64,000 nt of DNA. It comes from Trypanosoma brucei (taxonomy: Eukaryota). Of this stretch, positions 1 to 22,234 are shown in pieces. The position numbers were made by a program, and so were the translations under genes. Location: positions 640,001 through 704,000 of the forward strand of contig CP000066.1 of assembly GCA_000002445.1 (NCBI GenBank), in the 5' to 3' direction. Numbering within the stretch: position 1 is the first letter of the stretch; each line of letters begins with the position of its first letter. The notes below the pieces were generated by a model, which was given only the letters and a program-made list of their open reading frames with translations, did no database searches and was not told where the DNA came from.

Positions 1-906
1 TGTTGGGAGGCGGTTATACGGAGACAATGTCAACGTGCCAAATTCGAGTACGCAGAGATCCACCACATGCCAAAGGTAAAACTATGCGCCATGCTACAAC
101 AATGCATCGAGCTTCAAAACACTTCTCCACTACAAAAATCTCCCCCCAGTTCTGACGCTATGTTTTATTGAGCACAATTTCGTAGATGAGGGCGAGCCCT
201 GGACGTTTATCGCCCACCATCCCACTACCTTATGTAACGTGACGGACAGCAACCGAACAAAAGGGTCGTATCCTTTCGTTTTCTACACATATCACTTTGA
301 ATCCGAGAAGGAGTTCAACAGATGACAAACATAATGCAGTACGTACTAAAACAAAAAACACTTTTTACTTGAATCCCTATATCAACTCACAATCGACAGC
401 ACATATTCGACATTAACTAACTCCATCATTAAAATACACTCCACTCTAACACAGAAACAACCCAATGTGATGCTTAGTTACCATAACAAAGGAATACGCC
501 TCACGTTTCACAAACATGGGTACGAAGTCATTCCACCCTAGTACACACATTTGGTCACCTCACATTAATAACCTGTTTCTTAAACGCGTAAGGCGTTGTT
601 TAAATTTCACGTTGTCATATAATATAATATTCCATACATAATTCTGCCTGCAGAGTCCACACCATATCGACAGCTGCCTTCATTTTGTTTCAGTGCAAAC
701 GCCTAAACCCCTTCTAAAGGAGTCTGGCGTAGTATAAAGATATACAATGCTACAAATACCAGAGCAGCTAGATTGAAACACAGGTGGTGAGGAACTATCG
801 GCATCTGGGGATGAATGACTTCATTCAAATGGGCATGCACGAATGCAGCACCTTTGAAGGGACAAAAACTCGTTTTAGAAAGAAAACTGACAAATAATTT
901 GTACTC

Positions 907-1563
907 TCAGAGAAATAGGAGCAACACTGGAAAAAAAACCTGGTAGATAGGTGGTTGCAGCGGCTGAGATTTGCTTTTCTGCTGTTCCGGGGGGCGAACA
1001 GAGGAAGTTCCGTTACGTTCGCTGCCAAAAGTGGAGGAGACAGTACCTTTATTTTCGGATTTGAGGTGGCCGTCATCCTTAGAGGGTGAACCATTTTCCT
1101 CCTTTTTAGGGGTCGCAGAAACCGAACTACCATTTCTCACCGGCTCTTCAGAAAGCACAGGGCCGTACTCGGATGATGGAGGTGCCTCACCTTTGTTAGA
1201 GGCCTCGTCGCGACTTGAGTCTCCACCCGCTTCCACAACTGGTGAAGCGACTTCGGGTGTTGAGAGCCCAAGGAACTCACTAACCTTTGCGGTTACACAT
1301 CTGTGCGGTGAAAAGCAGGTCAATCCCCCGCCGCAAACGGTACAGTTCCCCTCTGCAGGTGCGCCCGAAGGAACCCTGTGTGCCAGGGTGCAGTTTTTCT
1401 GTGCATACGTCATGAGACGATTCTCCTCGTTTCTAGTTATACGGCTTTCAATTCCCAATACTTCCGTGCACTTACCCACATATCCAATTCTTCCCTCCCA
1501 TACATTCTCACACATGGCCACACGTTGAACGAAACCGAACAGTATTATTGGTAGGCACAGCAT
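907..1563 (-). CDS. Array copy 1 (218 aa): predicted secreted, possibly GPI-anchored, small surface protein. It has a signal peptide, a ~90-aa Cys-rich head, an acidic Ser/Glu/Pro/Gly-rich stalk and a hydrophobic C-terminus.
   Basis: True ATG (+ strand 'cat' at 1561-1563). Hydrophobic N-terminus MLCLPIILFGFVQRVA. Cys framework includes NCTVCGGGLTC..RC. Several NxS/T sequons (NCT x2, NGS x2, NGT). The C-terminus ends ...QPPIYQVFFPVLLLFL. A pyrimidine tract and AGs lie just 5' on the coding strand (+ 1603-1622). Confidence 0.8.
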   Translation of the reverse strand: MLCLPIILFGFVQRVAMCENVWEGRIGYVGKCTEVLGIESRITRNEENRLMTYAQKNCTLAHRVPSGAPAEGNCTVCGGGLTCFSPHRCVTAKVSEFLGLSTPEVASPVVEAGGDSSRDEASNKGEAPPSSEYGPVLSEEPVRNGSSVSATPKKEENGSPSKDDGHLKSENKGTVSSTFGSERNGTSSVRPPEQQKSKSQPLQPPIYQVFFPVLLLFL

Positions 1564-2420
1564 TTCAGAATTCTACACTGCCTGAGTTGCTCCAACACCA
1601 GCGCAAAGAAAAATAATAAACACCTCATACATAACATATATCATACAGTTATGTGTGTTTATACTTTGTTTCAAAATATATCGTATTGAATACAAATAGC
1701 AGACACATGACACGAAAAAATCCCATTAAGCGTTAACATGACATAAAATACCCTATTCAGATGCAACCGAACAAAAGGGTCGTATCCTTTCATTTTCTAC
1801 GCATATCACTTTTGATCCAAGATACGGTTAAACAGGTGACAAACATAATGCAGTACGTACTAAAACAAAAAACACTTTTTACTTGAATCCCTATATCAAC
1901 TCACAATCGACAACACATATTCGACATTAACTAACTCCATCATTAAAATACACTCCACTCTAACACAGAAACAACCCAATGTGATGCTTAGTTACCATAA
2001 CAAAGGAATACGCCTCACGTTTCACAAACATGGGTACGAAGTCATTCCACCCTAGTACACACATTTGGTCACCTCACATTAATAACCTGTTTCTTAAACG
2101 CGTAAGGCGTTGTTTAAATTTCACGTTGTCATATAATATAATATTCCATACATAATTCTGCCTGCAGAGTCCACACCATATCGACAGCTGCCTTCATCTT
2201 ACTTCCAAACAAACGCCTAAAACTCTTCTAAAGGAGTCTGGCGTAGCATAAAGATATACAATGACGCAAACACCAAAGAAGCTAGATTGAAACACAGGTG
2301 GGGAGGAACTATCGGCATCTGGGGATGAATGACTTCATTCAAATGGGCATGCACGAATGCAGCACCTTTGAAGGGACAAAAACTCGTTTTAGAAAGAAAA
2401 CTGACAAATAATTTGTACTC

Positions 2421-3077
2421 TCAGAGAAATAGGAGCAACACTGAGGAAAACACCTGGTAGATAGGTGGTTGCAGCGGCTGAGATTTGCTTGTCTGCTGTT
2501 CCGGGGGGCGAACAGAGGAAGTTCCGTTACGTTCGCTGCCAAAAGTGGAGGAGACAGTACCTTTATTTTCGGATTTGAGGTGGCCGTCATCCTTAGAGGG
2601 TGAACCATTTTCCTCCTTTTTAGGGGTCGCAGAAACCGAACTACCATTTCTCACCGGCTCTTCAGAAAGCACAGGGCCGTACTCGGATGATGGAGGTGCC
2701 TCACCTTTGTTAGAGGCATCGTCGCGACTTGAGTCTCCACCCGCTTCCACAACTGGTGAAGCGACTTCGGGTGTTGAGAGCCCAAGGAACTCACTAACCT
2801 TTGCGGTTACACATCTGTGCGGTGAAAAGCAGGTCAATCCCCCGCCGCAAACGGTACAGTTCCCCTCTGCAGGTGCGCCCGAAGGAACCCTGTGTGCCAG
2901 GGTGCAGTTTTTCTGTGCATACGTCATGAGACGATTCTCCTCGTTTCTAGTTATACGGCTTTCAATTCCCAATACTTCCGTGCACTTACCCACATATCCA
3001 ATTCTTCCCTCCCATACATTCTCACACATGGCCACACGTTGAACGAAACCGAACAGTATTATTGGTAGGCACAGCAT
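2421..3077 (-). CDS. Array copy 2 (218 aa): same family, variant type B (..RDDASN.., ..QQTSKS.., ..VFSSVLLLFL).
   Basis: ATG at 3077. Identical architecture to copy 1, from which it differs at 4 residues. Confidence 0.8.
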   Translation of the reverse strand: MLCLPIILFGFVQRVAMCENVWEGRIGYVGKCTEVLGIESRITRNEENRLMTYAQKNCTLAHRVPSGAPAEGNCTVCGGGLTCFSPHRCVTAKVSEFLGLSTPEVASPVVEAGGDSSRDDASNKGEAPPSSEYGPVLSEEPVRNGSSVSATPKKEENGSPSKDDGHLKSENKGTVSSTFGSERNGTSSVRPPEQQTSKSQPLQPPIYQVFSSVLLLFL

Positions 3078-3934
3078 TTCAGAATTCTACACTGCCTGAG
3101 TTGCTCCAACACCAGCGCAAAGAAAAATAATAAACACCTCATACATAACATATATCATACAGTTATGTGTGTTTATACTTTGTTTCAAAATATATCGTAT
3201 TGAATACAAATAGCAGACACATGACACGAAAAAATCCCATTAAGCGTTAACATGACATAAAATACCCTATTCAGATGCAACCGAACAAAAGGGTCGTATC
3301 CTTTCATTTTCTACGCATATCACTTTTGATCCAAGATACGGTTAAACAGGTGACAAACATAATGCAGTACGTACTAAAACAAAAAACACTTTTTACTTGA
3401 ATCCCTATATCAACTCACAATCGACAACACATATTCGACATTAACTAACTCCATCATTAAAATACACTCCACTCTAACACAGAAACAACCCAATGTGATG
3501 CTTAGTTACCATAACAAAGGAATACGCCTCACGTTTCACAAACATGGGTACGAAGTCATTCCACCCTAGTACACACATTTGGTCACCTCACATTAATAAC
3601 CTGTTTCTTAAACGCGTAAGGCGTTGTTTAAATTTCACGTTGTCATATAATATAATATTCCATACATAATTCTGCCTGCAGAGTCCACACCATATCGACA
3701 GCTGCCTTCATCTTACTTCCAAACAAACGCCTAAAACTCTTCTAAAGGAGTCTGGCGTAGCATAAAGATATACAATGACGCAAACACCAAAGAAGCTAGA
3801 TTGAAACACAGGTGGGGAGGAACTATCGGCATCTGGGGATGAATGACTTCATTCAAATGGGCATGCACGAATGCAGCACCTTTGAAGGGACAAAAACTCG
3901 TTTTAGAAAGAAAACTGACAAATAATTTGTACTC

Positions 3935-4591
3935 TCAGAGAAATAGGAGCAACACTGAGGAAAACACCTGGTAGATAGGTGGTTGCAGCGGCTGAGATTT
4001 GCTTGTCTGCTGTTCCGGGGGGCGAACAGAGGAAGTTCCGTTACGTTCGCTGCCAAAAGTGGAGGAGACAGTACCTTTATTTTCGGATTTGAGGTGGCCG
4101 TCATCCTTAGAGGGTGAACCATTTTCCTCCTTTTTAGGGGTCGCAGAAACCGAACTACCATTTCTCACCGGCTCTTCAGAAAGCACAGGGCCGTACTCGG
4201 ATGATGGAGGTGCCTCACCTTTGTTAGAGGCATCGTCGCGACTTGAGTCTCCACCCGCTTCCACAACTGGTGAAGCGACTTCGGGTGTTGAGAGCCCAAG
4301 GAACTCACTAACCTTTGCGGTTACACATCTGTGCGGTGAAAAGCAGGTCAATCCCCCGCCACAAACGGTACAGTTCCCCTCTGCAGGTGCGCCCGAAGGA
4401 ACCCTGTGTGCCAGGGTGCAGTTTTTCTGTGCATACGTCATGAGACGATTCTCCTCGTTTCTAGTTATACGGCTTTCAATTCCCAATACTTCCGTGCACT
4501 TACCCACATATCCAATTCTTCCCTCCCATACATTCTCACACATGGCCACACGTTGAACGAAACCGAACAGTATTATTGGTAGGCACAGCAT
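3935..4591 (-). CDS. Array copy 3 (218 aa): same family, variant type B.
   Basis: ATG at 4591. The protein is identical to copy 2. One synonymous difference was seen (gccAcaaacgg at ~4360 versus gccGcaaacgg at ~2846), which shows the copies are distinct loci. Confidence 0.8.
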   Translation of the reverse strand: MLCLPIILFGFVQRVAMCENVWEGRIGYVGKCTEVLGIESRITRNEENRLMTYAQKNCTLAHRVPSGAPAEGNCTVCGGGLTCFSPHRCVTAKVSEFLGLSTPEVASPVVEAGGDSSRDDASNKGEAPPSSEYGPVLSEEPVRNGSSVSATPKKEENGSPSKDDGHLKSENKGTVSSTFGSERNGTSSVRPPEQQTSKSQPLQPPIYQVFSSVLLLFL

Positions 4592-5448
4592 TTCAGAATT
4601 CTACACTGCCTGAGTTGCTCCAACACCAGCGCAAAGAAAAATAATAAACACCTCATACATAACATATATCATACAGTTATGTGTGTTTATACTTTGTTTC
4701 AAAATATATCGTATTGAATACAAATAGCAGACACATGACACGAAAAAATCCCATTAAGCGTTAACATGACATAAAATACCCTATTCAGATGCAACCGAAC
4801 AAAAGGGTCGTATCCTTTCGTTTTCTACACATATCACTTTTGATCCAAGATACGGTTAAACAGGTGACAAACATAATGCAGTACGTACTAAAACAAAAAA
4901 CACTTTTTACTTGAATCCCTATATCAACTCACAATCGACAACACATATTCGACATTAACTAACTCCATCATTAAAATACACTCCACTCTAACACAGCAAC
5001 AACCCAATGTGATGCTTAGTTACCATAACAAAGGAATACGCCTCACGTTTCACAAACATGGGTACGAAGTCATTCCACCCTAGTACACACATTTGGTCAC
5101 CTCACATTAATAACCTGTTTCTTAAACGCGTAAGGCGTTGTTTAAATTTCACGTTGTCATATAATATAATATTCCATACATAATTCTGCCTGCAGAGTCC
5201 ACACCATATCGACAGCTGCCTTCATCTTACTTCCAAACAAACGCCTAAAACTCTTCTAAAGGAGTCTGGCGTAGCATAAAGATATACAATGACGCAAACA
5301 CCAAAGAAGCTAGATTGAAACACAGGTGGGGAGGAACTATCGGCATCTGGGGATGAATGACTTCATTCAAATGGGCATGCACGAATGCAGCACCTTTGAA
5401 GGGACAAAAACTCGTTTTAGAAAGAAAACTGACAAATAATTTGTACTC

Positions 5449-6123
5449 TCAGAGAAATAGGAGCAACACTGGAAAAAAAACCTGGTAGATAGGTGGTTGC
5501 AGCGGCTGAGATTTGCTTTTCTGCTGTTCCGGGGGGCGAACAGAGGAAGTTCCGTTACGTTCGCTGCCAAAAGTGGAGGAGACAGTACCTTTATTTTCGG
5601 ATTTGAGGTGGCCGTCATCCTTAGAGGGTGAACCATTTTCCTCCTTTTTAGGGGTCGCAGAAACCGAACTACCATTTCTCACCGGCTCTTCAGAAAGCAC
5701 AGGGCCGTACTCGGATGATGGAGGTGCCTCACCTTTGTTAGAGGCCTCGTCGCGACTTGAGTCTCCACCCGCTTCCACAACTGGTGAAGCGACTGCGGGT
5801 GTTGGGAGCCCAAGGAACTCACTAACCTTTGCAGTGACACATCTATAATTGAAAGGACAACGCAAGGTTCCCCCGCCACAAACGGTACAGTTCCCGTCAG
5901 TGGTTGCGCCAGATGGTACGCTTCGGATGGGAGTGCAGTTCGCTTCCGCATACTTCACGAGACGATTCTCTTCTGCTACGCCCGCTGGAGCCTTAATTTT
6001 CAGCAAATCCGTACACATATCCACAACTCCAACTCGCGTTCCCCATCCCTTCCCATAAGTAGCAACAATTTGAACCAATCCCGCGAACAGGGTTAATACA
6101 CAGACACACACAGGTCTCGTCAT
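5449..6123 (-). CDS. Array copy 4, promoter-proximal (224 aa from the ATG at 6123): same family with a diverged signal peptide and Cys-rich head, and a stalk and tail identical to copy 1.
   Basis: The track ORF (5449..6210) starts at TTG. In-frame ATGs are at 6204 and 6123. The ATG at 6123 aligns with the other copies (MTRPVCVCVLTLFAGLVQIVA versus MLCLPIILFGFVQRVA). It also sits just after a coding-strand pyrimidine tract and AGs (gtttttttgcttttattgttatgttagtaaaagatta-ATG). Conserved blocks include EENRL, NCT, VPSGA, GNCTVCGGG and RCVTAKVSEFLGL. Confidence 0.75.
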   Translation of the reverse strand: MTRPVCVCVLTLFAGLVQIVATYGKGWGTRVGVVDMCTDLLKIKAPAGVAEENRLVKYAEANCTPIRSVPSGATTDGNCTVCGGGTLRCPFNYRCVTAKVSEFLGLPTPAVASPVVEAGGDSSRDEASNKGEAPPSSEYGPVLSEEPVRNGSSVSATPKKEENGSPSKDDGHLKSENKGTVSSTFGSERNGTSSVRPPEQQKSKSQPLQPPIYQVFFPVLLLFL

Positions 6124-7031
6124 TAATCTTTTACTAACATAACAATAAAAGCAAAAAAACTTCTTTGCAGAGCAATTAACTCGCTTTCTCTCATGTTTAA
6201 ACATTGTCAAGTTACCTTTTGTTTAATATACAGAGCCAGTTAACCACTCAGAAAACAACCAGTGAGTATAATCAGCGTCCACAATACTTATCCGTATGGG
6301 AAGAAATGAAATATGAAGTTACGTCTTTTAAAATCTTTATCAAAAGCAGCAGCCAAGCGACCGGAGACTCACATTTATCAAGTGCGAGTAGGGGGCATCT
6401 GTGGTTCAATAACATAAAAACACATGCAGTAACAAGTTTTCGCAGATAAATATTATGGAGTACCACCTATATAAGTCCAAGTCCACACAAAAAAAACCCA
6501 AGCAAAAGCAAATACACAGTAAAGAAATAATTACAAACACATTTGATAGCACCGTCTGTTGATAGCAAATACTTAAACAGCGAAGAAGAAAGACGTTCAA
6601 AGCATTACAAAACACATCGTGGAGCAGTTCTGTAGAAACGATTACAAATGGGAAATAACCAACTCCCACGAAACAGTACATCACTGTAGCCAGTCCATCA
6701 AGAAAAATTGGCAGCGTCTCGGCGCGTGATTCAACTCTTTTCGAACGCTAGACAGCATCCACAACACTAAGCAGTTAGGTACAAATATAGATCACTACAT
6801 AGCAAAAGCAAAATGCGGTAAGTACCGCAAAGGGGTCCCCCATCCTTACGCTGTTCTATTATTTATTTCGCTTCTTCCACTTTATTGCAGTCTACAATTA
6901 TAGGCGCTTTCTCCCATCATATATTAAAGCATAATAGCGCGAGAAAGAACAAAAGGTCATAGATTAACGTATCGAGCTAGTGTGAGGGGTGATGCTCTGA
7001 GGCAGTATTTGTATCTAGTTTAGTGACGGAT

Positions 7032-7949
7032 TTATCCGGTGATAAAGCATACAATTGCGACAAGGAGGTTCTGTATCGCTCCATATCTCACGTTGTTTCC
7101 TTTTTTGTTTTCTGGTTTGCGGTCGATTCTTCCTGTGTTTGATACAATTCCTGCACCTGCTGCAACTGTATCATCCCGTCCGCGCACTGGTTCCTCCCTT
7201 CCTGGGTCTGCATCCTGTTTCCCATTGGTCGTCGTGCCATCTTCTGCAGCATCGCGCTGGTGATCATTCACTGTACCTTTTTCTGGTGAAGATTCCCCTC
7301 GAGGGTGAGTATGCTTCCCTCCCTGAGTTGCTCCTCCCTTTTCTGGTTCCTTTCGGGTCAAGCCCTCACCTCCAGCTCCGTCCTTTTTCCCCGAAGCTCC
7401 CCGCTTCTCCCCAGCAGTTCCCCGCTTTTCCCCCGGACTTTGCTGATCTTCCTTTGGAGTTTCCTCACCTTCCCCCGAAGCTTCCTGCTCCTCCCCCTCA
7501 CTTTTGGGAGCACTGCTCGCTGTCTCTTCGTCGTCCGAACCGCTACCCTTAGTTGTGTCTGAGGGTCCCTGTTCAGACGCGGCAGACTGCTCTACCGTCT
7601 CTTCTGTAGGGACCTGTTGTGTTATACTCCGCCAGTCGGAGTCGGAGCATGTTGTGGCATTGAGTGAATCCTCGCTTGAGTCCTCGTCCGTGCAATTAAG
7701 GGTGTGCAGCCGGTGGCCGTTTCCATGAAAAATGGCGTACACTTTGAGCTTCAGCTTGAAATATCCCTGTGGTTGTCCCTTTCCGATCAGAAGCACAGGA
7801 GTGTTTGTGCAGTTGGCAGGGTGCCACTTGCCCTTCCATCTGCACAGCGCCCCTTCCGCTTCATTATGCAGACAGTCACACCTGAAAGTCACTGCTGAAG
7901 ATCCCAAAACTACACAACTTGCTAGAAACAACGCTGTAAATGTCAACAT
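7032..7949 (-). CDS. 305-aa predicted surface/secreted acidic protein with a signal peptide, a Cys-containing N-terminal domain, a long Glu/Gly/Lys/Ser/Asp-rich low-complexity region and a hydrophobic C-terminus (GPI-signal-like).
   Basis: True ATG (7947-7949). N-terminus MLTFTALFLASCVVLGSSA. Six Cys fall within the first ~100 mature residues. A short internal repeat is present (GEKRGTAGEKRGASGKKDG). C-terminus ...YGAIQNLLVAIVCFITG. A pyrimidine tract and AGs lie 5' on the coding strand (~7965-8000). Confidence 0.75.
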   Translation of the reverse strand: MLTFTALFLASCVVLGSSAVTFRCDCLHNEAEGALCRWKGKWHPANCTNTPVLLIGKGQPQGYFKLKLKVYAIFHGNGHRLHTLNCTDEDSSEDSLNATTCSDSDWRSITQQVPTEETVEQSAASEQGPSDTTKGSGSDDEETASSAPKSEGEEQEASGEGEETPKEDQQSPGEKRGTAGEKRGASGKKDGAGGEGLTRKEPEKGGATQGGKHTHPRGESSPEKGTVNDHQRDAAEDGTTTNGKQDADPGREEPVRGRDDTVAAGAGIVSNTGRIDRKPENKKGNNVRYGAIQNLLVAIVCFITG

Positions 7950-12521: not shown

Positions 12522-15500
12522 TCACTTCTGCTCATTTCGCTTTGCAGCGAGCTCGCTCACCCATTTCGCCTTTTTGGCGGCGTACTTTTCCTCGGCAAAT
12601 CGCTTCTGTATTTGCAGCTGAAGTGAATTTAACCGCTCGGCTACTTTCAGCAACCTCGGAGCTCCCGCACTGTAACCTTCCTCCTGTGCTGTAAAAGATT
12701 CATCAGGCATAATGGCTGTTAGAATGCTGGCGGCCGGTAAGTGAGCCTTCCGCACCAGTCCAGCCAAATTGGAAATGAGTTTTTCGGCTCTGTTGAGCAC
12801 CGAGTAGGAAAGAGACTGTGAGAGCCCATTGAGTTCCTCCAGCATCGTGAAGCGGTAGTTCTTCCGAGTGGTGTCAATCTGCGCTTTAACGCGGAGGAAA
12901 TCAGCGAGACAGGCGTTGATGAGAACCTGCGCTCCATCATGACGCCATCCGTCTGATACATCGAGAACGGGAAGCAGACGACGGTCGCAGAAGAGATCGT
13001 CGCGGAGAGAAAAGACAACTTCATCAACAGAAGTGAAGACGTCACCGCAACCACTGATGGCCACAAACGGGTGACGAGCCTTAAACTGAACGGCAGATTC
13101 CTTGAGCGCATCCATTAGTGGGAAATCACCGGCGCCGTTGCCAAATATAAGTTGGTCGCCACCCGTTTCCACGTATGGCAAGCGGGGACCTTCACTCGAT
13201 TCCTCCTCTTCCTCCTCTTCCTGCTCCTTTCCCTTCTCTTCTTTCTCCTTCTTCTCGTCCAACCTTGACGCCAATTGGTTGTAGAAGGCAGAAAGCAGAG
13301 CAAAGAACTCTGTGTTATCAAAAGGACGTACGGAGGGGGAGCAAACATCAACGGGCGACAGTACGACACGATGTTGTGTGGCATTTGTTTTGCCCTCCCA
13401 CACCACGCTTACAGCCGGGTCAAGTAAAGCGGAACGATGAATTTCCAGCGGTACACCACATGTTTGGTGGAATGAGAAGAGATAGGCAAGCAGTTCGGCA
13501 ATAGGTTCATCCGTAACACCGCTGTGTAGCTCCTTATCGAGAGCAGGTGGATAGTGAGCCTCATGGAAAACTCCAGAGGTCAGCATGCGAATAAAGGCGA
13601 ATCCCTCATTACCCACATGGGCCTCCCTGAAAACGTACATGACATCTTGCAACAAGGAACCCAATGAAGAGGGGCGGTCCCGAAAGTGGAGTCCTTGCTT
13701 CTGCAGGAATACAAGGAGCATTTGCAGGTACTCTATGGTGAATCCCTCCATGTTACTTTGTGCAAATGCCTCCCGGCGTTGGAAAAAGAGCGGATTAACA
13801 AACAGCCTCTCGGCCAACTTCTTAACGTGCTGCTTCCATGCGTCCTCGTGCTTCAACGATCTGTGCGTGTTATAATCATATAACTGAAGTAGTCGCAACT
13901 GTGATATGGGGTCCATCTGCACATTCCCCTTAATCACCGTCATGCCGCTCGTCATAAGCCGCTTAATGCGTTGCATGGTAATCCCTAGGAAAATCAAGTG
14001 GCCGAGGTGATCGAGACCACGACGACCCGCACGACCCATCATTTGACGGAACTGCGTCGGATTTAACAGGATGTGATCACCGGCGAGTACAACAGAACGA
14101 CACGGGCTGTGAATGCCCAGCGCCAATGTTTCCGTGGAGAAAATAACACCGCAGTGGCGGCCTCGGAACAGCCTTTCCACGTGACCACGAAGTTTACCCT
14201 TCACACCGGCATGATGCATCCCAATACCCCGCTTTAAAGCGCGAAGAAGGAGGTCCTCCCCCTCACCTTCGCAGTCCTTTATTAGTTCCTTTACGACATC
14301 GGGTTCCACGCTGCACCCCGCCCCAATGAAAGTGAACTCGGGAAGAATATCTGGGACTTCGCAGACCTCCCCCTCATCTTCTTCACCTTCGTCCACATCA
14401 CGCTCGGCCCTCTCCACCTCACCATCCTCATTAGTCCTGAGGCGCTTTTGCTTCAGCGTGGACTCGCGTTGTTTGTGCCTCGCCTCCCGCTCCGCGGCCG
14501 CGCGCTCCACCTTGGCTTTGTAGAGGGCGAATTCCTCAGTTTGCCGGTAGCGCTCCTCTGCCTCTTCCAGCTGCTCCACAACGTACTTCACCAAGTCTTC
14601 ACAGTCTTCGGACTCGAAGCTGAACACAATAGCTGGGCCCATGTCCCTAGCGGAAATCTCGCGCAACACATTCAAACTTTGCTCTCGAATAAATTGCCTT
14701 GATCCCGGAAAAGCCGCCTCCGGCACCGCCTCATCTGACTCTTGCTCACTTCTACCCTCAGTGTTGGTCCTGCTTTGTTGTTGTGCGCGCTTCCTCTCCA
14801 TAGCTGCAACAGCATAGCTACCGAGCGCCGCCTCCTTCTCGTTCAACTTTTGCGCAAAGGCTGCAAGGATGGTCTCCGTTGCATGTTTCATCGTGGAGTT
14901 GAACTCTTTCACCTGTTCATCGGAGGAAATATCCGGCTTCTTCACGCTACTGTTGCTTAGCAGAACCCACTGAGCGAAGGCGTCCTTTACTTCCCGTTCA
15001 TACAGACGTGCACGCTGCTGGGTAATATACAAGTCCGCTTCAAAGTATCTCCCTGGCTCAAGGAGCTTGAGCTTCGACTGCAGCATCTGAACCCGCGGTA
15101 TCGAAGACAACTTCGGCCAAATGATGTTATCGAAGGCGGTTCGCATTTCCCCAAATAATGATACCACCTCACTGGGGACAAGGGTAATGTCAGGAGGGAA
15201 TCCCCGCTGGAGTTGGTCCGTTGTGAGGATGGACAAGGGATGTAAGTCGTGGATGTAGCGGTTCTCATATGTGGTAGTGAGTTTCTTCAAAGACGTACGC
15301 GTATCGGGAGGGGGAAGATAAATGTACTTCTTTATGTCATTCCATCGCTGAATGGTTTGGCCCTCCGATGGAAGCACGTGTACCCTATAGTCACGTGCCT
15401 TAGCGGGTGTGTCAACTGCCTGCTCCTTCAGCCGAGATTGCACGCGATTAAGCCACCCACACAGTTGCTGAGTTTCTCCCAGCGTGGCTGAAAGCGCAAC

Positions 15501-18500
15501 GAAAGGGCAGGGCAGAAGGGCAAGAATGCGTTCCCACACGTCACCATTGCCATTGCTCTCCATGGAGTGAATCTCATCGAGAATTACGTAATCGATAAGG
15601 TCAACCCATTCAGCGTACTTGGGTGAAAGCAACATGGTTTCAAATGTCTCGGGCACAGTCAGAAGTACTTGGCAGGAATCGTGGAACTGATGGTAGTCGG
15701 CCCCACCAAGAACACCATAAATATATTTACCACTATTTTTGTACTCTTTGGACCCATAGCGAGCGCAGACATCGGCCACCGCTTGATTAATCAACGCACG
15801 GGCGGGAGCAAGGTACACAACAATCCGCCTGTTGGAGCGGCGAAGAGTGTTATACATGCAGTAATACGAAACAAACGTTTTCCCAGCTGAAGTTGGGGCA
15901 CACACTACAGCACTCCCGCGATTGTCCACGATGTCAAGGAGCTCTCGCTGCCAACTGTCTGGGTTGAAGGCAACGCGGTAATCGGGTCTTCGAATGACCG
16001 GCCGCTCAAGCAGGTGTCCCATGTGAATGAGTTGCATCATTTCTGGTGTGTCGGTCAGTTGCCGCATCCGCGGGAGCATCGTTGGCCCTAACAAACTCGG
16101 TGCCTTATTTTGCCACTGAGTGATGGCACGGTCCAGCTTGCTGTAGTAATCTTCCCCAAAGTCCAGGTGCCTCAGAGCGGAGCGTACCGTGTCAAGGTCC
16201 TCTTGCGATATTTGCAGACCCTCGTTTTGGACCACCGACAAGACGTGATGGTGGCAATAAAGAAACAGCGGAATGGCTACCGATAGATCCGGTGTTTCCT
16301 TGGCCAAACGGGCACGCTCCCGCTCACTACGCCAGTTTTCGAGACGAAGTTTAACTACGAAGCATTTGATTTTCATCTGGATGTGCAGTTCCACGTAGGA
16401 CAGATACACCCACCGCAGGTACGACGCAGCTTCCGCGCTTGTTATATCCGACTTGAACTTCCGCAGCCCCTCCAGTTCTCCCCATTCTGTGCTCTTATCA
16501 CTTATGGTGGCGACGAGGTTATCAATGACTGTAAAACCGTATGGCACAGCAGTCTCCGTCTTCAAGCCCTTTTTCTTGACAGCGCGGTTCTTTGCCGAGG
16601 GATCTTCAAGCGTGAGCGCAAACTCCGCCTCACGGAGCCCACTGGAAGCCACAAGCAGGCGCCACATGGAAATCTTTAACGAAATATCGCTACCTTCACT
16701 CTTTCCAATCGTGCGATCGGGCTCGAAACCTTTGGTGAACTTTGCCTCCGCGAGTCGCTTGACTGCAGCCAAAAGTTTCTTCACAGCGTCATCACGATCT
16801 TTGTTGGTCGTACGTCCGTGCGTTGGGTCGATGCTGCGGAGGTGATCGTCCATTTGCTTCAACCAACTCTGAATGCTACTTGCGGCGTCTTTCAAATTCT
16901 TCTGCTCACGAATTTCATCATCCTTGCTACGCCCCTTCTTATTACGCTGTCCCTCGTGCTCATTATTCCCCTTTTTCTTCTTCGCGGCCGCACCCTTACC
17001 ACACCCTCCTGCACCTCCTGATCCAGCGGCGTCAGTGCTTTCTTGCTCATTATCCGAGCAAACCAAAGTTAGTGGTTGGGCGGCGAAACCACTTATTCCC
17101 ATGGACTGCGCCTGCTGGAAGGCGTTACGGACGAACTTCGTCTGAAACTCCTGCGCATGTCTTGCTTCCTTCTCAGTCATGTGAATCTTTGCCTCACGCT
17201 CCCCATCAGCATCAGTAACGTCGTTGAACTTGTCGAAAGGAGTGGTTATATCCCACCCAATAAGCTCATTGGCGGCGCCGTAGCCATCGGGTATCGGCCG
17301 CTTTGCCTTGTGTCCCTCCACCTTGAAGGTTTTGGCCAGGTGCTCTACTAACTCGTGTTTAAGGTACGGATATTCCTGAAGCTGCACAGGTTGAGGCTGA
17401 GCTAGCTCAGGGAGGCTCCTAAACGGTGTCGAGGTAATGTCAAGTGTGTCGTCGTCCATAAGATACTGCCAAGTCATGGAGATGTCCCCTACACCGTCTT
17501 CATCCAACAAATGGCTTGGCGCTTCTTCGCGTAGCAATCGCGCAACGGCGTAGAGGAGATGTCCGTCGATAATGTCGAATACCTGACCGCCTCCGTTGTC
17601 GCAGCCAGCGTGTCGAAGTGCGCTAAGGAGAAATGGTGAGATATCCGCAATAAAGTTTTGGAGCACGGCGCTGGGTAATGCCGCCTGGGCCCTGGCCTCG
17701 CAGCTCAGTATTCCCACAATGTAAGCCGTTATAACAAGGGCCTGACAAAGCTGCTGCTCTTGTTCGCTTCGTTCCTTCATGGTTAGATAGGTGCGTACTG
17801 CCGAACAGACAATCTTCTCACGGAATGTCAGGTCCTCGTTCAGCACGTTCAATGATTTTTGGGACAATGTGGGCAACGTCACTTCACGTTCGAGTGATTG
17901 AGCCAACGCGCGCACCTCCGGCTCGATTCCCAGCGAGCGCTCAAGGGTTGAGCCGTCCACGCCCATGGTGAAGACGATCATAGAGTTCTCCCTGTAGATG
18001 ACACGAGACGAGTACGCGACTTTGAGGCGGCGGGAGGCTGCCCAAAGCAGCAGACATCGAATATACATAGCCGCATCATTTCCTATTTCCTCGTCCTCAA
18101 CGATGCTCCTGTACGGCCGACGTGCAGGCACAGCGACGGCACCGCTGGAGTTGACACCTGAGGATGCATTAGTTGTTTCAACCTCCGGATTGACAAAAAA
18201 CTCTTGCAGCGGGTTCAAGGAACCCAGTTGCTCACCGTCAGACATGAAGATAAACTCCGGCTCCCACTCTTTCAGGTAGGTCTCAAAGGCCTCACTATGG
18301 AAACTTGGAAAGGTACGCACGGTGAAGCGGGAGCCGCCTGGGCACTCGCTCGCGGCTGTCAGTGCCAGTCGTAAGTTTTCCCTCATCAGCATTTTCGCAG
18401 GGGCTCGTTCCCACATCCACAACATACTATCGAAGAAAACAATGTGGAATCGGGCCCCGCGGCACTCCATATCGAAGAGCAGCTTTTGTGCATTGTACAT

Positions 18501-19034
18501 GACATGTAATGGCTGTATGAGGTCCCAGTCTACATTTGGTGGTGAGAGGGCAGACATGAACAAGGAATCACCGTCTATAAAAAACATCTCCGTTGCGGCA
18601 AGATGTGCGAACATGTCACAGAGTTCGGGCCGTGCAGTGGCGTAATGGTGCTCCACCGCCGTACGCAGCAGCTCTTCTTCAATCACAGCTCGCATCTTCC
18701 CATCCTTCTGGACGGCAGCAACAAGGAACTTCCACGCATTGCGTTCCTCTTCCTCGTGCTTCAGGGTGCCGACAATTCCACCGGCTGGTGGCTTCCCTCC
18801 GTTTCGGAACGCGGATAACACGGCGTCACATACGCGACTTAATGCGCTGCGGCGACGTGCAACTTGAGCGATTTTCCCCTCATATGAGGCATCAGCCTCT
18901 TCCTGAATCGGAATGTTTTTGGCTTCGAAAATGGCCTGTAGGGCCCCTACGGTATCCATAGGAATTTTTAAAAAATCATCATCCTTGAGACAGTTACCGA
19001 ACAGCAGGTTAAGATCCCGTTGCTGAGTAGCCAT
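12522..19034 (-). CDS. Giant (2170 aa) superfamily-2 DExH-box helicase of the Ski2-like / DDX60-like type, with a ~1000-aa N-terminal extension.
   Basis: True ATG at 19034. Ordered helicase motifs: I VVCAPTSAGKTF, Ia VVYLAPARALINQ, Ib LLTVPETFE, II VILDEIHSME, III LSATLG, V FSTETLALGIHSP, VI QMMGRAGRRGLD. An acidic insert (EGEEDEGE) sits between the RecA lobes. Confidence 0.9.
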   Translation of the reverse strand: MATQQRDLNLLFGNCLKDDDFLKIPMDTVGALQAIFEAKNIPIQEEADASYEGKIAQVARRRSALSRVCDAVLSAFRNGGKPPAGGIVGTLKHEEEERNAWKFLVAAVQKDGKMRAVIEEELLRTAVEHHYATARPELCDMFAHLAATEMFFIDGDSLFMSALSPPNVDWDLIQPLHVMYNAQKLLFDMECRGARFHIVFFDSMLWMWERAPAKMLMRENLRLALTAASECPGGSRFTVRTFPSFHSEAFETYLKEWEPEFIFMSDGEQLGSLNPLQEFFVNPEVETTNASSGVNSSGAVAVPARRPYRSIVEDEEIGNDAAMYIRCLLLWAASRRLKVAYSSRVIYRENSMIVFTMGVDGSTLERSLGIEPEVRALAQSLEREVTLPTLSQKSLNVLNEDLTFREKIVCSAVRTYLTMKERSEQEQQLCQALVITAYIVGILSCEARAQAALPSAVLQNFIADISPFLLSALRHAGCDNGGGQVFDIIDGHLLYAVARLLREEAPSHLLDEDGVGDISMTWQYLMDDDTLDITSTPFRSLPELAQPQPVQLQEYPYLKHELVEHLAKTFKVEGHKAKRPIPDGYGAANELIGWDITTPFDKFNDVTDADGEREAKIHMTEKEARHAQEFQTKFVRNAFQQAQSMGISGFAAQPLTLVCSDNEQESTDAAGSGGAGGCGKGAAAKKKKGNNEHEGQRNKKGRSKDDEIREQKNLKDAASSIQSWLKQMDDHLRSIDPTHGRTTNKDRDDAVKKLLAAVKRLAEAKFTKGFEPDRTIGKSEGSDISLKISMWRLLVASSGLREAEFALTLEDPSAKNRAVKKKGLKTETAVPYGFTVIDNLVATISDKSTEWGELEGLRKFKSDITSAEAASYLRWVYLSYVELHIQMKIKCFVVKLRLENWRSERERARLAKETPDLSVAIPLFLYCHHHVLSVVQNEGLQISQEDLDTVRSALRHLDFGEDYYSKLDRAITQWQNKAPSLLGPTMLPRMRQLTDTPEMMQLIHMGHLLERPVIRRPDYRVAFNPDSWQRELLDIVDNRGSAVVCAPTSAGKTFVSYYCMYNTLRRSNRRIVVYLAPARALINQAVADVCARYGSKEYKNSGKYIYGVLGGADYHQFHDSCQVLLTVPETFETMLLSPKYAEWVDLIDYVILDEIHSMESNGNGDVWERILALLPCPFVALSATLGETQQLCGWLNRVQSRLKEQAVDTPAKARDYRVHVLPSEGQTIQRWNDIKKYIYLPPPDTRTSLKKLTTTYENRYIHDLHPLSILTTDQLQRGFPPDITLVPSEVVSLFGEMRTAFDNIIWPKLSSIPRVQMLQSKLKLLEPGRYFEADLYITQQRARLYEREVKDAFAQWVLLSNSSVKKPDISSDEQVKEFNSTMKHATETILAAFAQKLNEKEAALGSYAVAAMERKRAQQQSRTNTEGRSEQESDEAVPEAAFPGSRQFIREQSLNVLREISARDMGPAIVFSFESEDCEDLVKYVVEQLEEAEERYRQTEEFALYKAKVERAAAEREARHKQRESTLKQKRLRTNEDGEVERAERDVDEGEEDEGEVCEVPDILPEFTFIGAGCSVEPDVVKELIKDCEGEGEDLLLRALKRGIGMHHAGVKGKLRGHVERLFRGRHCGVIFSTETLALGIHSPCRSVVLAGDHILLNPTQFRQMMGRAGRRGLDHLGHLIFLGITMQRIKRLMTSGMTVIKGNVQMDPISQLRLLQLYDYNTHRSLKHEDAWKQHVKKLAERLFVNPLFFQRREAFAQSNMEGFTIEYLQMLLVFLQKQGLHFRDRPSSLGSLLQDVMYVFREAHVGNEGFAFIRMLTSGVFHEAHYPPALDKELHSGVTDEPIAELLAYLFSFHQTCGVPLEIHRSALLDPAVSVVWEGKTNATQHRVVLSPVDVCSPSVRPFDNTEFFALLSAFYNQLASRLDEKKEKEEKGKEQEEEEEEESSEGPRLPYVETGGDQLIFGNGAGDFPLMDALKESAVQFKARHPFVAISGCGDVFTSVDEVVFSLRDDLFCDRRLLPVLDVSDGWRHDGAQVLINACLADFLRVKAQIDTTRKNYRFTMLEELNGLSQSLSYSVLNRAEKLISNLAGLVRKAHLPAASILTAIMPDESFTAQEEGYSAGAPRLLKVAERLNSLQLQIQKRFAEEKYAAKKAKWVSELAAKRNEQK

Positions 19035-19786: not shown

Positions 19787-22234
19787 TTAGTTTGAGGTAC
19801 CAGGAGCTAGAAGGGTGCCACCACTACCACCGGACACGAGCGCCGGACCAAGCAAAAAACATGGAAAGGCGTACAGCAGCACCCAAACAATACGAAAAGA
19901 CGCCACTGGAACACTGATCATCCAAACAAGGGGAATCAGCACAAGGAGAATGCACAAATGCGGTGACAGCCGCTGAATCCATGGGCTGGCCAAAGCCTTG
20001 GCCAAAGAAGACAGTTTGTCCCTATGAAGCTGCTCACAAAACCGTTGCTCATGATATAAAGGCCACATCACGTATGAGAGAATAAGCACGAGTAATAGCA
20101 CCTCCACGGCGCGACTGGTGAAGTCCACTACGGTGGCATCGTCAAACGTGGCTGATCGCAGCGCGTTCCTCCACGCGAAGAAGGGATGAAGGTGAATTAA
20201 GTGCAAAAGGGCGTAGGCCGACACTAACATATACGCCTCCTCCCTTCTGCCGTCACTGCTGTCAAAGGTAGCGGTTTGATATGACGCAGAGAGAGGCAGT
20301 AGAACTATAGTGAGACACAACCACACTAGGGCGCGGTCACATATACGCAGCGGTAACAACACACCACACAGAAAAACAACTACACCAAACACAGTGACCG
20401 GTATTATCCGGTTCCACGGCTCATCGCAATTATCATCGCTACGTGTGGGCGACCTGCGAACCCACCGCGGTAGTCTTAGATAGATGCACGCACGATGAGT
20501 AACCAACCAGAATTTCGTCCATCCAAACTTACTTCCCCTCAAAAGCAGCTGAAGCAAGCGATAAGCAATAATACCCATCCATATGCCTTTCAACGCGGGG
20601 CCGGAAGCGGCAAAAGCACACCAAACCAACATGAGAGGATCAAATGTGGGTTTGCACACAAGCGTGTCAGCGATCCAGGGCGACTTACATCCTTCCATTG
20701 CTGGTAGCAGACAACATGGTATCTGCACGAGTAACAAGTGGCCCACAATTCCCATTATCGGGGTAACCATAACAACAGCCGTGTGCGATGACGTGAACAA
20801 TGATTTCCATGACCAATCTGCGCAGCAATGGGACAGCACACGGAGGTTCAGCAGCAGCCGCAGCAGCAGCGGGTGGATCGCGGAGAGGACGAAAGAACCG
20901 TATGAAAACGCCACCAACACGGTAAGGCCGACATGAGTGTAACTCGCCTCCGCCCACCACGAAAAGGCATCTGAAAAGGAGTGCGGCGGAGGTGCTGGAT
21001 CATTGATGCCCTCTGGTAAAGACCAGTTCCGCAACTTAAGGTTCCTTGACTCGGGTGAAATACCATCCCCCCTGACCAGAGAATTTCTAATAACGGCAGA
21101 GGTCCAGAATTCAACAACACAGTAGTCCCTCATTATATCGTCATGAGAAAACGTCTTTCCACACACTTTTGGGTGCTCTGTGGTGACATCAATACACGAC
21201 CCATTGTTGCACCCAATGCTGTCACTGAGGCGCGTGTGTTTAGACTGCACCATCAAGTCTAACGGCCCCGACGTAAGTGAAAGAATGCGGGGATTGCGAT
21301 AGCCGTTGCGGTCATTAGCCAACACATTTTTCTGAACAGGATCCCAAAGTGTTTTGTACAACCTCCACATGGGCAGGTCAAGAAAAACAGGCATCTGACG
21401 GTTTGGACTGTTCAGTGTAATAACTCCGGCAATCAACGGGAAAACCTGTGAGTCTGATAGAGTCGACAGCGCCATTCGTACCACAACGCCACCCATGGAG
21501 TGACCAATGAGCCATATGAAGGGAGGGTTATGCGTCTCGTTTTTTCGGTCTTCATACAAAGTTATTATTGTATCCGCTACAAAATCTGCCTGATGATGCA
21601 GAAGAGCACCGCGATGGGCATTTGCCTGCTCGGAGAAATCAAAGGTGTACAACCTTCCCTTGATTTTTTGCTCCTGCAAAAAAAGAATGCCAAGCCGGTG
21701 GGCCTGCATGTAAGAGCCTGCGTTTCCATGAGCAAAGAATATAATTACCTCCGGCGGCTTTTCCTGCGTCGGTGCGTATGTGCTGTAACAATCAGGACAA
21801 CTGACTTCAAAAAAGGAGTACGGCGGGCTGCTTCCCCTGTTACTCCTCTCGTCACCCCACTTCGGATTCTGCAAGAACAATCTTCGATAACTCAGTGGGT
21901 GCCACGCAACCGAGTCCGGAAACACACGAAATCGGTTGTTGTTGGCGTAGTCCCTGATCTGTAACCCAAGTCGCACGACCGAAAGTGCGTAGAGCAGTGC
22001 AGCAGCCAAAGAAAACAGTGTAAATAGCACAACGAGATTTTTCTTCCTTTGCGGAAGGGATGTCGCAGCCGGATTGACACCTGACGAGGGGGCACCAATT
22101 CCACTTAACTCTTCATCTTCTTGGCTAGGCATATGTTCGTCGCACAAACCTTTGTCGAAGCAGTACCCACTGACAGGTCCGTCCCCTGTATATGCACTGC
22201 AATCATCCTCCCTTTCATCACCACAAAGGCGCAT
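19787..22234 (-). CDS. PGAP1/Bst1-like GPI inositol-deacylase (815 aa): alpha/beta-hydrolase head plus a multi-pass membrane C-terminal half.
   Basis: True ATG at 22234. PGAP1-type motifs IIFFAHGNAGSYMQ, lipase nucleophile elbow LIGHSMGGVVV, and TLNSP. An N-terminal TM segment (LVVLFTLFSLAAALLYAL) and many C-terminal hydrophobic segments are present. Confidence 0.8.
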   Translation of the reverse strand: MRLCGDEREDDCSAYTGDGPVSGYCFDKGLCDEHMPSQEDEELSGIGAPSSGVNPAATSLPQRKKNLVVLFTLFSLAAALLYALSVVRLGLQIRDYANNNRFRVFPDSVAWHPLSYRRLFLQNPKWGDERSNRGSSPPYSFFEVSCPDCYSTYAPTQEKPPEVIIFFAHGNAGSYMQAHRLGILFLQEQKIKGRLYTFDFSEQANAHRGALLHHQADFVADTIITLYEDRKNETHNPPFIWLIGHSMGGVVVRMALSTLSDSQVFPLIAGVITLNSPNRQMPVFLDLPMWRLYKTLWDPVQKNVLANDRNGYRNPRILSLTSGPLDLMVQSKHTRLSDSIGCNNGSCIDVTTEHPKVCGKTFSHDDIMRDYCVVEFWTSAVIRNSLVRGDGISPESRNLKLRNWSLPEGINDPAPPPHSFSDAFSWWAEASYTHVGLTVLVAFSYGSFVLSAIHPLLLRLLLNLRVLSHCCADWSWKSLFTSSHTAVVMVTPIMGIVGHLLLVQIPCCLLPAMEGCKSPWIADTLVCKPTFDPLMLVWCAFAASGPALKGIWMGIIAYRLLQLLLRGSKFGWTKFWLVTHRACIYLRLPRWVRRSPTRSDDNCDEPWNRIIPVTVFGVVVFLCGVLLPLRICDRALVWLCLTIVLLPLSASYQTATFDSSDGRREEAYMLVSAYALLHLIHLHPFFAWRNALRSATFDDATVVDFTSRAVEVLLLVLILSYVMWPLYHEQRFCEQLHRDKLSSLAKALASPWIQRLSPHLCILLVLIPLVWMISVPVASFRIVWVLLYAFPCFLLGPALVSGGSGGTLLAPGTSN

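Follow-up and report, generated by a model that had tools for sequence, protein, structure and literature searches.

The locus examined here raises the question of whether four tandem genes for small, Cys-rich proteins, found in a 64-kb window (the whole stretch of DNA analyzed, positions 640,001–704,000 of Trypanosoma brucei brucei TREU927 chromosome 3), represent a surface family that has escaped description. They do not: the array is a catalogued family of unstudied function and no new entity. The first-pass annotation, made from the sequence alone, correctly assigned the DNA to a trypanosome and described the proteins as a poorly characterized family without a place in any named group; their function is indeed little characterized, but the genes are annotated, have been published as an array and, as detailed below, are homologous to the exemplar of a family in the cell-surface phylome.

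We identify the genes as Tb927.3.2550–2580 because the proteins translated from the window are identical to AAZ10289–AAZ10292, the published coordinates (642421..643077, 643935, 645449, and 647032) equal the window positions plus 640,000, the neighboring genes encode DDX60 and GPIdeAc2, and the copy number is that of tandem array “Tb13.” Tb927.3.2560 is given as complement(642421..643077) of Tb927_03_v4 in the supplement of Kabani (2009), and Tb927.3.2570 and Tb927.3.2580 are placed at 643935 and 645449, respectively, in the table of Jensen (2009). Array Tb13 of the 2007 and 2010 papers by Jackson comprises these same four genes, with four copies each in T. b. brucei and T. b. gambiense and 1536 aligned sites (PMC1855330; PMC2854126). 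Two genes anchor the locus, both on the minus strand: Tb927.3.2600 (12522..19034), the first housekeeping gene upstream of the gene island that holds the array, encodes a DDX60-like helicase (Pfam DEAD, PIN-like_DDX60, and Helicase_C; PMC10639054), and Tb927.3.2610 (19787..22234) encodes GPI inositol deacylase 2 (GPIdeAc2, PGAP1-like; Pfam PGAP1; PMC6299225).

Repeat and identity comparison, together with inspection of splice signals, places the whole array at 249..6307 on the minus strand, where it consists of four direct copies of a 1514-bp unit (249–1762, 1763–3276, 3277–4790, and 4791–~6307). The start-to-start spacing is 1514, 1514, and 1514 bp, with one sub-block of 1517 bp, in accord with the head-to-tail arrangement, period and product length (218–224 aa) reported earlier; Tandem Repeats Finder missed the array solely through its maximum period of 500. 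Each unit comprises a 657-bp coding sequence, a 5′ spacer of ~200 bp containing a polypyrimidine tract and an AG at −28, and a 3′ flank of ~658 bp (putative 3′UTR). The first-pass annotation gave no strand; all four genes are on the minus strand.

Copies 1 (Tb927.3.2550, AAZ10289; 907..1563), 2 (Tb927.3.2560, AAZ10290, UniProt Q582W8; 2421..3077), and 3 (Tb927.3.2570, AAZ10291; 3935..4591) are open reading frames for 218-aa proteins with the same type of head (type A), the first two recognized by identical translation and the third by the coordinate of Jensen (2009). Copies 2 and 3 encode the identical protein, and the tail variant ..QQKSKS..FFPVLLLFL is common to copies 1 and 4. Copy 4 (Tb927.3.2580, AAZ10292; 5449..6204), identified by its identical 251-aa translation and the coordinate of Jensen (2009), carries head type B; the annotated ATG at 6204 gives 251 aa and that at 6123 (MTRPV...) 224 aa, the latter start yielding a canonical signal peptide, and splice-signal inspection does not discriminate between the two. 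Units 2 and 3 share 99.9% identity with each other and 97.7% with unit 1. Unit 4 matches the others almost exactly only from about codon 95–100 of the coding sequence to the end of the 3′ flank; its head and signal peptide, like the DNA upstream, are diverged or unique. Identity of at least 97% among all four units is confined to ~249–5830.

The diverged part of copy 4 (5830..6123, minus strand), delimited by identity, dS/dN, and breakpoint comparison, comprises the signal peptide and head B and marks a gene-conversion boundary inside the coding sequence. Head B shares 62% amino acid identity with head A (dS ~1.1, dN ~0.38). In the stalk, tail, and 3′ flank, dS is 0 between copies within a genome vs. 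0.12 between subspecies, and the conversion breakpoint falls near nt 300 in the T. b. brucei copies and near nt 240 in those of T. b. gambiense. The 3′ half evolves in concert, with stalk and tail homogenized by gene conversion, and the heads are variable and mosaic.

The array proteins have the layout described before, namely a hydrophobic, signal-like N-terminus, a Cys head, a stalk rich in Ser (20%), Glu (12%), Gly (11%), and Pro (10%), and a hydrophobic C-terminus of 13 residues. The signal peptide flag is set to 1 for Tb927.3.2560,.2570, and.2580 in the GeneDB-derived tables (Jensen, 2009; Kabani, 2009). The 218-aa protein contains eight Cys, six of which fall in the mature head (C32, C58, C74, C77, C83, and C89), and five sequons (N57, N73, N144, N157, and N184); the count of five sequons noted at first is right, but only the two NCT sites are conserved across the family, and two of the stalk sequons are gone in T. 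b. gambiense. “Acidic” likewise applies only mildly (pI ~5.3 for the mature protein and 4.6 for the stalk). In an alignment of 10 homologs, all six head Cys are invariant, as are N73, the QQxSxS motif, and the hydrophobic tail. The reading frame is real, given that dN/dS is 0.3–0.46 and the six Cys are invariant; no copy in any subspecies has a disrupted frame.

As the first-pass annotation had stated, the proteins do not resemble procyclins, BARP, ISGs, VSGs, or ESAGs. No Pfam domain matched at E ≤ 1, VSG domains included, no PDB sequence matched at E ≤ 10, and a fold comparison gave no match; membership in the VSG, VSG-related, ESAG, ISG, procyclin, and BARP families was rejected, there being no Pfam or PDB-sequence match.

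Relatives of the array proteins are confined to the T. brucei group: profile searches of 5.8 × 10^9 and 1.84 × 10^9 proteins returned matches only from T. b. brucei, T. b. gambiense, T. b. equiperdum, and T. equiperdum, and a head-only profile run against the 1.84 billion proteins retrieved just Tb927.3.600 (E 2.5e-5), Tb927.3.5670 (E 1.9e-4), and one doubtful marine sequence. The array proteins are 25–29% identical to Tb927.3.600 and Tb927.3.5670; in pairwise BLASTP, Tb927.3.600 aligns over its full length (E 1e-12, 29% identity, 213 colinear residues), with the six Cys, YAxANCT, GNCTxC, and QQxSxS plus the hydrophobic tail in common. In the 2013 cell-surface phylome, Tb927.3.600 serves as the exemplar of Fam5, a family of eight genes flagged for a signal peptide and a GPI anchor that is present in T. 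brucei only, with none in T. congolense and T. vivax (Jackson, 2013); Gadelha (2015) likewise labels Tb927.3.600 Fam05. We conclude that the array is a Trypanozoon-restricted multigene family and very probably part of Fam5. The case for membership is the homology to the exemplar plus an agreement in number, as Tb927.3.600, Tb927.3.5670, the four array genes, and Tb927.10.5700 and.5710 (1 + 1 + 4 + 2) would make up the eight.

Further traits fit this placement. Fam5 and the array share restriction to T. brucei, a length of ~220–235 aa, a putative signal peptide, a GPI-type tail, a typically tandem arrangement, mRNA more abundant in bloodstream than in procyclic forms, and a chromosome-internal position adjoining ESAG-like or VSG-related genes or strand switches; the strand switch by the array lies outside the 64-kb window, the context within which is an ESAG/VR island. 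In T. b. gambiense, a convergent gene follows the ortholog of Tb927.3.600. The array differs from Fam5 in being tandemly amplified, whereas Tb927.3.600 and.5670 are single-copy in TREU927, in the three extra stalk sequons of its proteins, and in that Tb927.3.600, unlike the array proteins, has been detected in the surface proteome. Fam4, Fam6, and Fam7 (e.g., Tb927.3.5690–5730), further “hypothetical” surface families specific to T. brucei, are similar in forming tandem arrays beside strand-switch regions, in their signal peptides and bloodstream-preferential mRNA, and in resembling no known protein (Jackson, 2013), but they are separate sequence families, none of which is among the profile-search matches of the array, and Fam6, unlike the array, is reported not to be duplicated in T. 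b. gambiense and T. evansi.

The array is embedded in a gene island specific to T. brucei and upregulated in bloodstream forms, made up of ESAG1-like, ESAG2-like, and VSG-related genes, with the VSG-related Tb927.3.2540 on one side and Tb927.3.2590/.2600 on the other, and is not simply the downstream end of a housekeeping transcription unit, as had been supposed. VSG_B genes lie downstream at the syntenic T. b. gambiense locus. Tb927.3.2590 (7032..7949, minus strand; 305 aa), recognized by its open reading frame and protein features, has a signal peptide, a Cys-containing head, an acidic stalk, and a hydrophobic C-terminus like the array proteins but no detectable homology to them (hhalign probability 0.4%); its mRNA measures 6452/9374/7676 in bloodstream forms vs. 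1705/756 in procyclics (microarray; Jensen, 2009), and it belongs to the island, outside the array family.

Expression bears out the suggestion that the array is stage-regulated. In the microarray data of Jensen (2009), mRNA of Tb927.3.2550–70, for which the copies share a probe, measures 4653 in cultured bloodstream forms, 7070 in slender, 9998 in stumpy, 2689 in log procyclic, and 642 in stationary procyclic forms, and the corresponding values for Tb927.3.2580 are 1430, 1908, 3114, 473, and 414. Array mRNA is clearly present and is 7–16-fold higher in bloodstream forms, with the maximum in stumpy cells in this one dataset; all genes of the island follow the same pattern. Tandem duplication would raise gene dosage in a genome without gene-specific promoters, and the common 3′UTR may confer the stage regulation.

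These features suggest a model of the protein. The precursor of ~218 aa would lose its signal peptide and, most likely, have its last ~21 residues exchanged for a GPI anchor, with S197 within S-K-S as the rule-based candidate omega site, to give a product of ~19 kDa. The mature protein is predicted to consist of a ~75-residue head with three disulfides and two N-glycans, borne on a disordered Ser/Glu/Pro/Gly stalk of ~105 residues. It could be a glycoprotein of the bloodstream/stumpy surface or flagellar pocket, low in abundance and either invariant or polymorphic between strains; its head would then face the host or ligand, and its stalk would act as a spacer inside the VSG coat. The GPI anchor is a plausible inference from the C-terminal layout: small residues at the omega and omega+2 positions (S-K-S), the polar spacer QPLQPP, and a hydrophobic run to the last residue. 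Taken as a whole, the explanation that Tb927.3.2550–2580 are a Trypanozoon-restricted, probable Fam5 family conforming to this surface glycoprotein model is, in our view, likely to be correct.

The products might instead be secreted or shed like some ESAG9 (Fam2) proteins, in which case the hydrophobic C-terminus would not serve as a GPI signal or the anchor would be cut off. ESAG9 proteins are likewise confined to T. brucei, small, glycosylated, and Cys-containing; they have a signal peptide, their genes are tandem or clustered, their mRNA is stumpy-enriched like that of the array, and several are secreted. ESAG9 shows no sequence similarity to the array, and most of its genes occupy expression-site or subtelomeric positions. 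In favor of secretion or shedding, the C-terminal hydrophobic stretch of the array proteins is short (~13 residues), none of the array genes figures among the 25 in the high-confidence GPI list of Savage (2012; BigPI + FragAnchor + SignalP), which includes Tb927.10.5700 and.5710, and the Gadelha surface-proteome tables that were searched do not contain their products. On the other hand, the canonical GPI-signal layout is kept across all three lineages, and Tb927.3.600, the tail of which follows a near-identical pattern, has predicted signal peptide and GPI scores of 0.996 each and was recovered in the surface-labeled bloodstream proteome (Gadelha, 2015). We consider secretion or shedding unlikely.

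It is more improbable still that the proteins are mainly internal (ER, Golgi, endosomes, or lysosome) or barely translated, with the genes evolving fast under weak constraint as a by-product of a recombination-prone ESAG/VR island and playing no important part at the surface. The observation that ESP3 (Tb927.10.5700), the one Fam05 member tagged with GFP, was found “elsewhere” and not at the surface, is tempered by the warning of Gadelha et al. that tagging may mislocalize GPI proteins. The array products were not found in the proteomic tables searched, the copy number varies (four in TREU927 and DAL972, three in T. b. equiperdum), and constraint is relaxed at the above dN/dS, reaching 0.79 in the stalk of the Tb927.3.600 lineage. 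Nevertheless, dN/dS below 1, the invariance of the six Cys and two sequons, and the intact frames argue for a functional, folded protein of the secretory pathway, and the mRNA is substantial and regulated. That the array encodes a coat or secreted protein of the insect stages, akin to procyclin, BARP, or the Fam10/Fam50 proteins of the salivary gland and hinted at by the first-pass comparison with stage-regulated coats, is extremely improbable: signal peptide, acidic repetitive-like stalk, GPI-like tail, and tandem array do recall insect-stage coat genes, and Tb927.10.5700/.5710 looked salivary-gland-specific at a low level, but the array mRNA is lowest in procyclics (642 in stationary procyclic vs. 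9998 in stumpy forms), the neighbors are of bloodstream type, and the salivary-gland-enriched genes named in the main text of PMC3998935 do not include the array.

The surface glycoprotein reading leaves a gap in an otherwise long record: the genes have figured in comparative-genomic and transcriptomic tables since 2007, yet a T. brucei-specific family upregulated in the mammal-infective and transmission (stumpy) stages has no assigned function or structure. The sequences, with a variable head on a conserved stalk, lead us to hypothesize that the head is host-exposed and polymorphic. A parallel with VSG is apparent in the combination of a variable, mosaic head with a C-terminal portion that is conserved, the GPI-type tail (ending ...LLLFL in the array), the segmental gene conversion that shapes the copies, and the adjoining VSG-related genes. 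However, there is no homology, no VSG Pfam domain, and no fold match, the head has ~75 aa vs. ~350 aa in VSG, and the array family is a handful of genes with no sign of monoallelic expression or switching.

A bolder proposal, which we regard as rather unlikely, is that the array, Tb927.3.600, and Tb927.3.5670 constitute a second, small-scale polymorphic surface-antigen system of bloodstream/stumpy T. brucei, in which old, divergent head “cassettes” of an undescribed three-disulfide fold would be shuffled by segmental gene conversion onto a homogenized stalk and GPI tail. If so, the pattern of divergent heads would suggest balancing or diversifying selection by a host (or tsetse) ligand or antibody, and the head would be a candidate strain-typing marker or determinant of host interaction. 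The positional orthologs of Tb927.3.600 in two subspecies have heads with 21% identity between flanks with 94–96% identity.

Translation of the four array genes yields proteins identical to AAZ10289-AAZ10292 of T. b. brucei TREU927 chromosome 3, and a search of 5.8 billion proteins returned matches only from the T. brucei group. The published coordinates, namely complement(642421..643077) in Tb927_03_v4 for Tb927.3.2560 (Kabani 2009) and 643935, 645449 and 647032 for Tb927.3.2570,.2580 and.2590, respectively (Jensen 2009), exceed the window coordinates by 640,000. The location is also supported by the upstream genes for a 2170-aa DDX60-like helicase (Tb927.3.2600) and a PGAP1-like protein, GPI inositol deacylase 2 (Tb927.3.2610). 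The coordinates, protein identity and neighbors therefore identify the array as Tb927.3.2550-2580. Two other assignments, to Fam6 at Tb927.3.5690-5730 and to Fam5, a family of the African trypanosome cell-surface phylome, at Tb927.3.600 itself, were considered and are ruled out by the published coordinates and neighbors. The first-pass annotation treated these genes as an unplaced family, but they are already annotated and have been catalogued as the tandem array “Tb13”, a hypothetical protein with 4 copies in T. b. brucei, 4 in T. b. gambiense and 1536 aligned sites (Jackson 2007; T. b. gambiense genome paper). The array is thus a known gene family and not a discovery. Main-text literature searches found no functional study of these genes.

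A repeat search of the window recovered the four claimed tandem direct copies, with a start-to-start period of 1514 bp (249, 1763, 3277 and 4791); Tandem Repeats Finder did not report the array in the window because its maximum period, 500, is shorter than that of the array. The coding sequences, all on the minus strand, are located at 907-1563, 2421-3077 and 3935-4591 (copies 1-3, 218 aa each) and at 5449-6123 (copy 4, 224 aa, or 251 aa if translation starts at the ATG at 6204). In copy 4, one polypyrimidine/AG signal lies 5' of both candidate ATGs, and a further T-rich tract with an AG is found 11 nt before the second ATG. Each unit comprises a short polypyrimidine tract, an AG located 28 nt 5' of the ATG, a 657-bp CDS and ~658 bp of conserved 3' flank. 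In the alignment of all four units, units 2 and 3 are 99.9% identical and unit 1 is 97.7% identical to both, with unit 4 at ~85% identity to the others; the near-identity of unit 4 is confined to the last ~1000 columns (distal CDS and 3' flank), and over the first ~480 columns, which hold the upstream DNA, the signal peptide and the head, it is essentially unrelated or diverged. Once ORFs that overlap a longer one on the minus strand are set aside, every ORF of at least 200 aa in the 64 kb reads from the minus strand, as is typical of polycistronic units in kinetoplastids. Conserved Cys and dN/dS < 1 single out the annotated frame. The repeat units also contain antisense 185-aa ORFs (971-1528, 2485-3042 and 3999-4556, plus strand) and out-of-frame 102-aa ORFs (825-1133, minus strand, and again in each unit), which we reject as independent genes and regard as by-products of a repeated, compositionally biased CDS.

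The described features of the encoded protein were largely reproduced: the mature head contains six Cys, the protein has five sequons, the stalk is rich in Ser (20%), Glu (12%), Gly (11%) and Pro (10%), and the C-terminus is hydrophobic over 13 residues; the protein, described as acidic, is only mildly so (mature pI ~5.3). Sequences specific to the head include IGYVGK and VSEFLGLSTPEVASPVVEAGGDSSR. The N-terminus is predicted to be a cleavable signal peptide, for which the -3/-1 rule suggests a likely cut after VAMC18, and the published signal-peptide flags for Tb927.3.2560,.2570 and.2580 are 1 (Jensen 2009; Kabani 2009). The C-terminus resembles a GPI signal, with a candidate omega site at S197 in S-K-S, a spacer QPLQPP and the 13-residue hydrophobic end, a layout common to the GPI-predicted Tb927.3.600; the array genes are absent from the high-confidence GPI list of Savage 2012. 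The mature protein would have a mass of ~19 kDa before glycosylation and would consist of a head of ~75 residues, containing three disulfides and bearing two conserved N-glycans, and a disordered stalk of ~105 residues. Both conserved head sequons are N-C-T, with the middle Cys itself conserved. Pfam and PDB sequence searches with the array protein gave no matches, and its full-length AlphaFold model was unusable (pLDDT 40).

A head-only profile, compared at full HMMER sensitivity with 1.84 billion representatives, matched only three proteins outside the array's own cluster, among them Tb927.3.600 (E 2.5e-5) and Tb927.3.5670 (E 1.9e-4), both encoded on T. brucei chromosome 3. Aligned pairwise, the array protein and Tb927.3.600 are colinear along their entire length, at 29% identity and E 1e-12. 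In ten family sequences, C32, C58, C74, C77, C83, C89 and N73 are invariant, as is QQxSxS, accompanied by near-invariant YA..NCT and GNCT.C motifs and a terminal hydrophobic run. The closest relative of the array is Fam5, typified by Tb927.3.600 and described as T. brucei-specific, with a signal peptide, GPI anchoring and 8 genes (Jackson 2013). The label “Fam05” has been applied to Tb927.3.600 and Tb927.10.5700 (Gadelha 2015), and the latter forms a related pair with Tb927.10.5710 (Savage 2012). Tb927.3.600, Tb927.3.5670, the four array genes and this pair add up to 8, the stated size of Fam5, from which we infer that they are probably its members. Profile and single-sequence searches confine the family to T. 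b. brucei, T. b. gambiense, T. b. equiperdum and T. equiperdum. The sole head-profile match beyond trypanosomes is a marine metatranscriptome protein (P0010, ERR1712117_319862, 501 aa), which scored E 1.6e-5 through three repeats of TTCHICPSGSIQYPGTHRCFARKWSGFLCNL (CxxC...RC type), with the match spanning ...PSG... to NCTVCGGG..C....RC......FLGL. We do not consider this protein a homolog; its score probably reflects chance similarity in Cys spacing, added up across the repeats.

The heads fall into two types, A (copies 1-3) and B (copy 4), which differ at dS ~1.1 and dN ~0.38 (omega 0.35) and are old paralogs. From about codon 95-100 on, the stalk, tail and 3' flank of the two types are identical within a genome (dS = 0), whereas between subspecies the same regions differ at dS 0.12, a hallmark of copies that evolve in concert through gene conversion. 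In T. b. brucei the breakpoint of this conversion falls at ~nt 300, and in T. b. gambiense at ~nt 240. The A head of T. b. gambiense is a mosaic that resembles brucei A over nt 1-120, carries a third sequence type (33% different) over nt 121-180 and matches the B type from nt 241 on. The Cys5-Cys6 loop occurs as LTCFSPHRC, TLRCPFNYRC, TLLCPFNYRC and LRCWGEHRC.

The combination of a variable head and a conserved remainder is found again at the Tb927.3.600 locus. The positional orthologs of this gene are located at L003:6001-6708 in T. b. gambiense and at L004:6001-6693 in T. b. equiperdum; both adjoin the same acetyltransferase gene, with flanks that are 94-96% identical. Between these orthologs, identity is only 21% in the head, where synonymous sites are saturated, and 73% in the rest of the protein, whose last ~95 residues hardly differ. 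Hence it looks as if the head at this locus was swapped by allelic or cassette replacement. Whole-region dN/dS (omega 0.3-0.46) gives no overall sign of positive selection, and because the synonymous sites of the variable segments are highly diverged as well, these segments look like old sequence types undergoing shuffling rather than the products of recent adaptive change. In carrying a variable head on a conserved tail, the array proteins are analogous to VSG, to which they have no homology. No discussion of a pattern of head cassettes on a conserved stalk, which we deduce from a handful of genomes, was found in the literature searched. That the heads form a polymorphic, host-exposed system with a new fold seems to us rather unlikely.

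According to the gene table of Jensen 2009, the array lies within an island of T. brucei-specific, surface-type genes that includes Tb927.3.2500 (T. brucei-specific, with a signal peptide), Tb927.3.2510 (ESAG2-like), Tb927.3.2520 (ESAG1-like), Tb927.3.2540 (VSG-related), the array itself, Tb927.3.2550-80, and Tb927.3.2590 (T. brucei-specific), and is bracketed by the housekeeping genes Tb927.3.2490 and.2600. In the syntenic loci of T. b. gambiense and T. b. equiperdum, the gene order is kept, and VSG_B-domain genes follow downstream without a change of strand; the array consists of one B-type and three A-type copies in the former and of one B-type and two A-type copies in the latter. In the T. 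b. equiperdum locus L001, ~8.4 kb without called genes (10660-19100) separate the array from the VSG-related gene. Together with the three copies of this assembly, the gap shows that the downstream edge of the array varies in copy number and structure.

The adjacent T. brucei-specific gene Tb927.3.2590 (7032-7949, minus strand, 305 aa) encodes a protein whose N-terminus resembles a signal peptide, whose head contains Cys, whose stalk is very acidic and rich in Glu, Gly and Ser, and whose C-terminus is hydrophobic. The mRNA of this gene is raised 4-12-fold in bloodstream forms. Despite the similar architecture, we reject it as a distant family member (hhalign probability 0.4%); it has no Pfam match. 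The 4.5 kb between this gene and the DDX60 helicase gene (7950-12520) contain no ORF of at least 200 aa and no internal repeats, and may be a long UTR or an intergenic region at the boundary between housekeeping genes and the surface island; the T. b. gambiense equivalent has two called 123-aa ORFs. The VSG 3'UTR 16-mer is absent from the window with up to 2 mismatches allowed. Elsewhere on the chromosome, Tb927.3.600 adjoins ESAG1-, ESAG11- and ESAG2-like genes and an ESAG8-like LRRP, and Tb927.3.5670 adjoins the VSG-related VR9 (.5680) and the Fam6 tandem array.5690-5730 (Jensen 2009 table), so that all three family loci are in ESAG/VR-type islands of the same chromosome.

In the microarray data of Jensen 2009, the signals in cultured bloodstream, slender, stumpy, log procyclic and stationary procyclic cells are 4653, 7070, 9998, 2689 and 642 for Tb927.3.2550-70 (shared probe) and 1430, 1908, 3114, 473 and 414 for Tb927.3.2580. 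The mRNA is present, and these values therefore rule out a lack of expression in every stage, which the first-pass annotation had named as an outcome that would refute it. The bloodstream excess in these data is 5-16-fold for every island gene, and the stumpy-enriched profile of the array is like that of ESAG9. At the protein level, detection is confined to the paralogs. Tb927.3.600 was detected with 2 peptides among the high-confidence proteins of the surface-labelled bloodstream proteome, and its prediction scores are 0.996 for both SP and GPI. Tb927.10.5700 (ESP3) belongs to that proteome as well, but an sfGFP fusion of ESP3 localised off the surface, possibly because of tagging, as the authors caution (Gadelha 2015). 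The array products were not found in the surface-proteome tables of that study. Overall, we propose that the array encodes a low-abundance GPI-anchored glycoprotein of the bloodstream/stumpy surface or the flagellar pocket, with the head as the likely interacting part. Tandem amplification could plausibly raise dosage in a genome without gene-specific promoters, a reading previously given for such arrays (Jackson 2007), and stage control might be carried by the shared 3' flank. In genomic style, the array is similar to the T. brucei-specific tandem families Fam4, Fam6 and Fam7, which are located beside strand-switch regions, have signal peptides and no similarity to known proteins, and are preferentially expressed in bloodstream forms (Jackson 2013).
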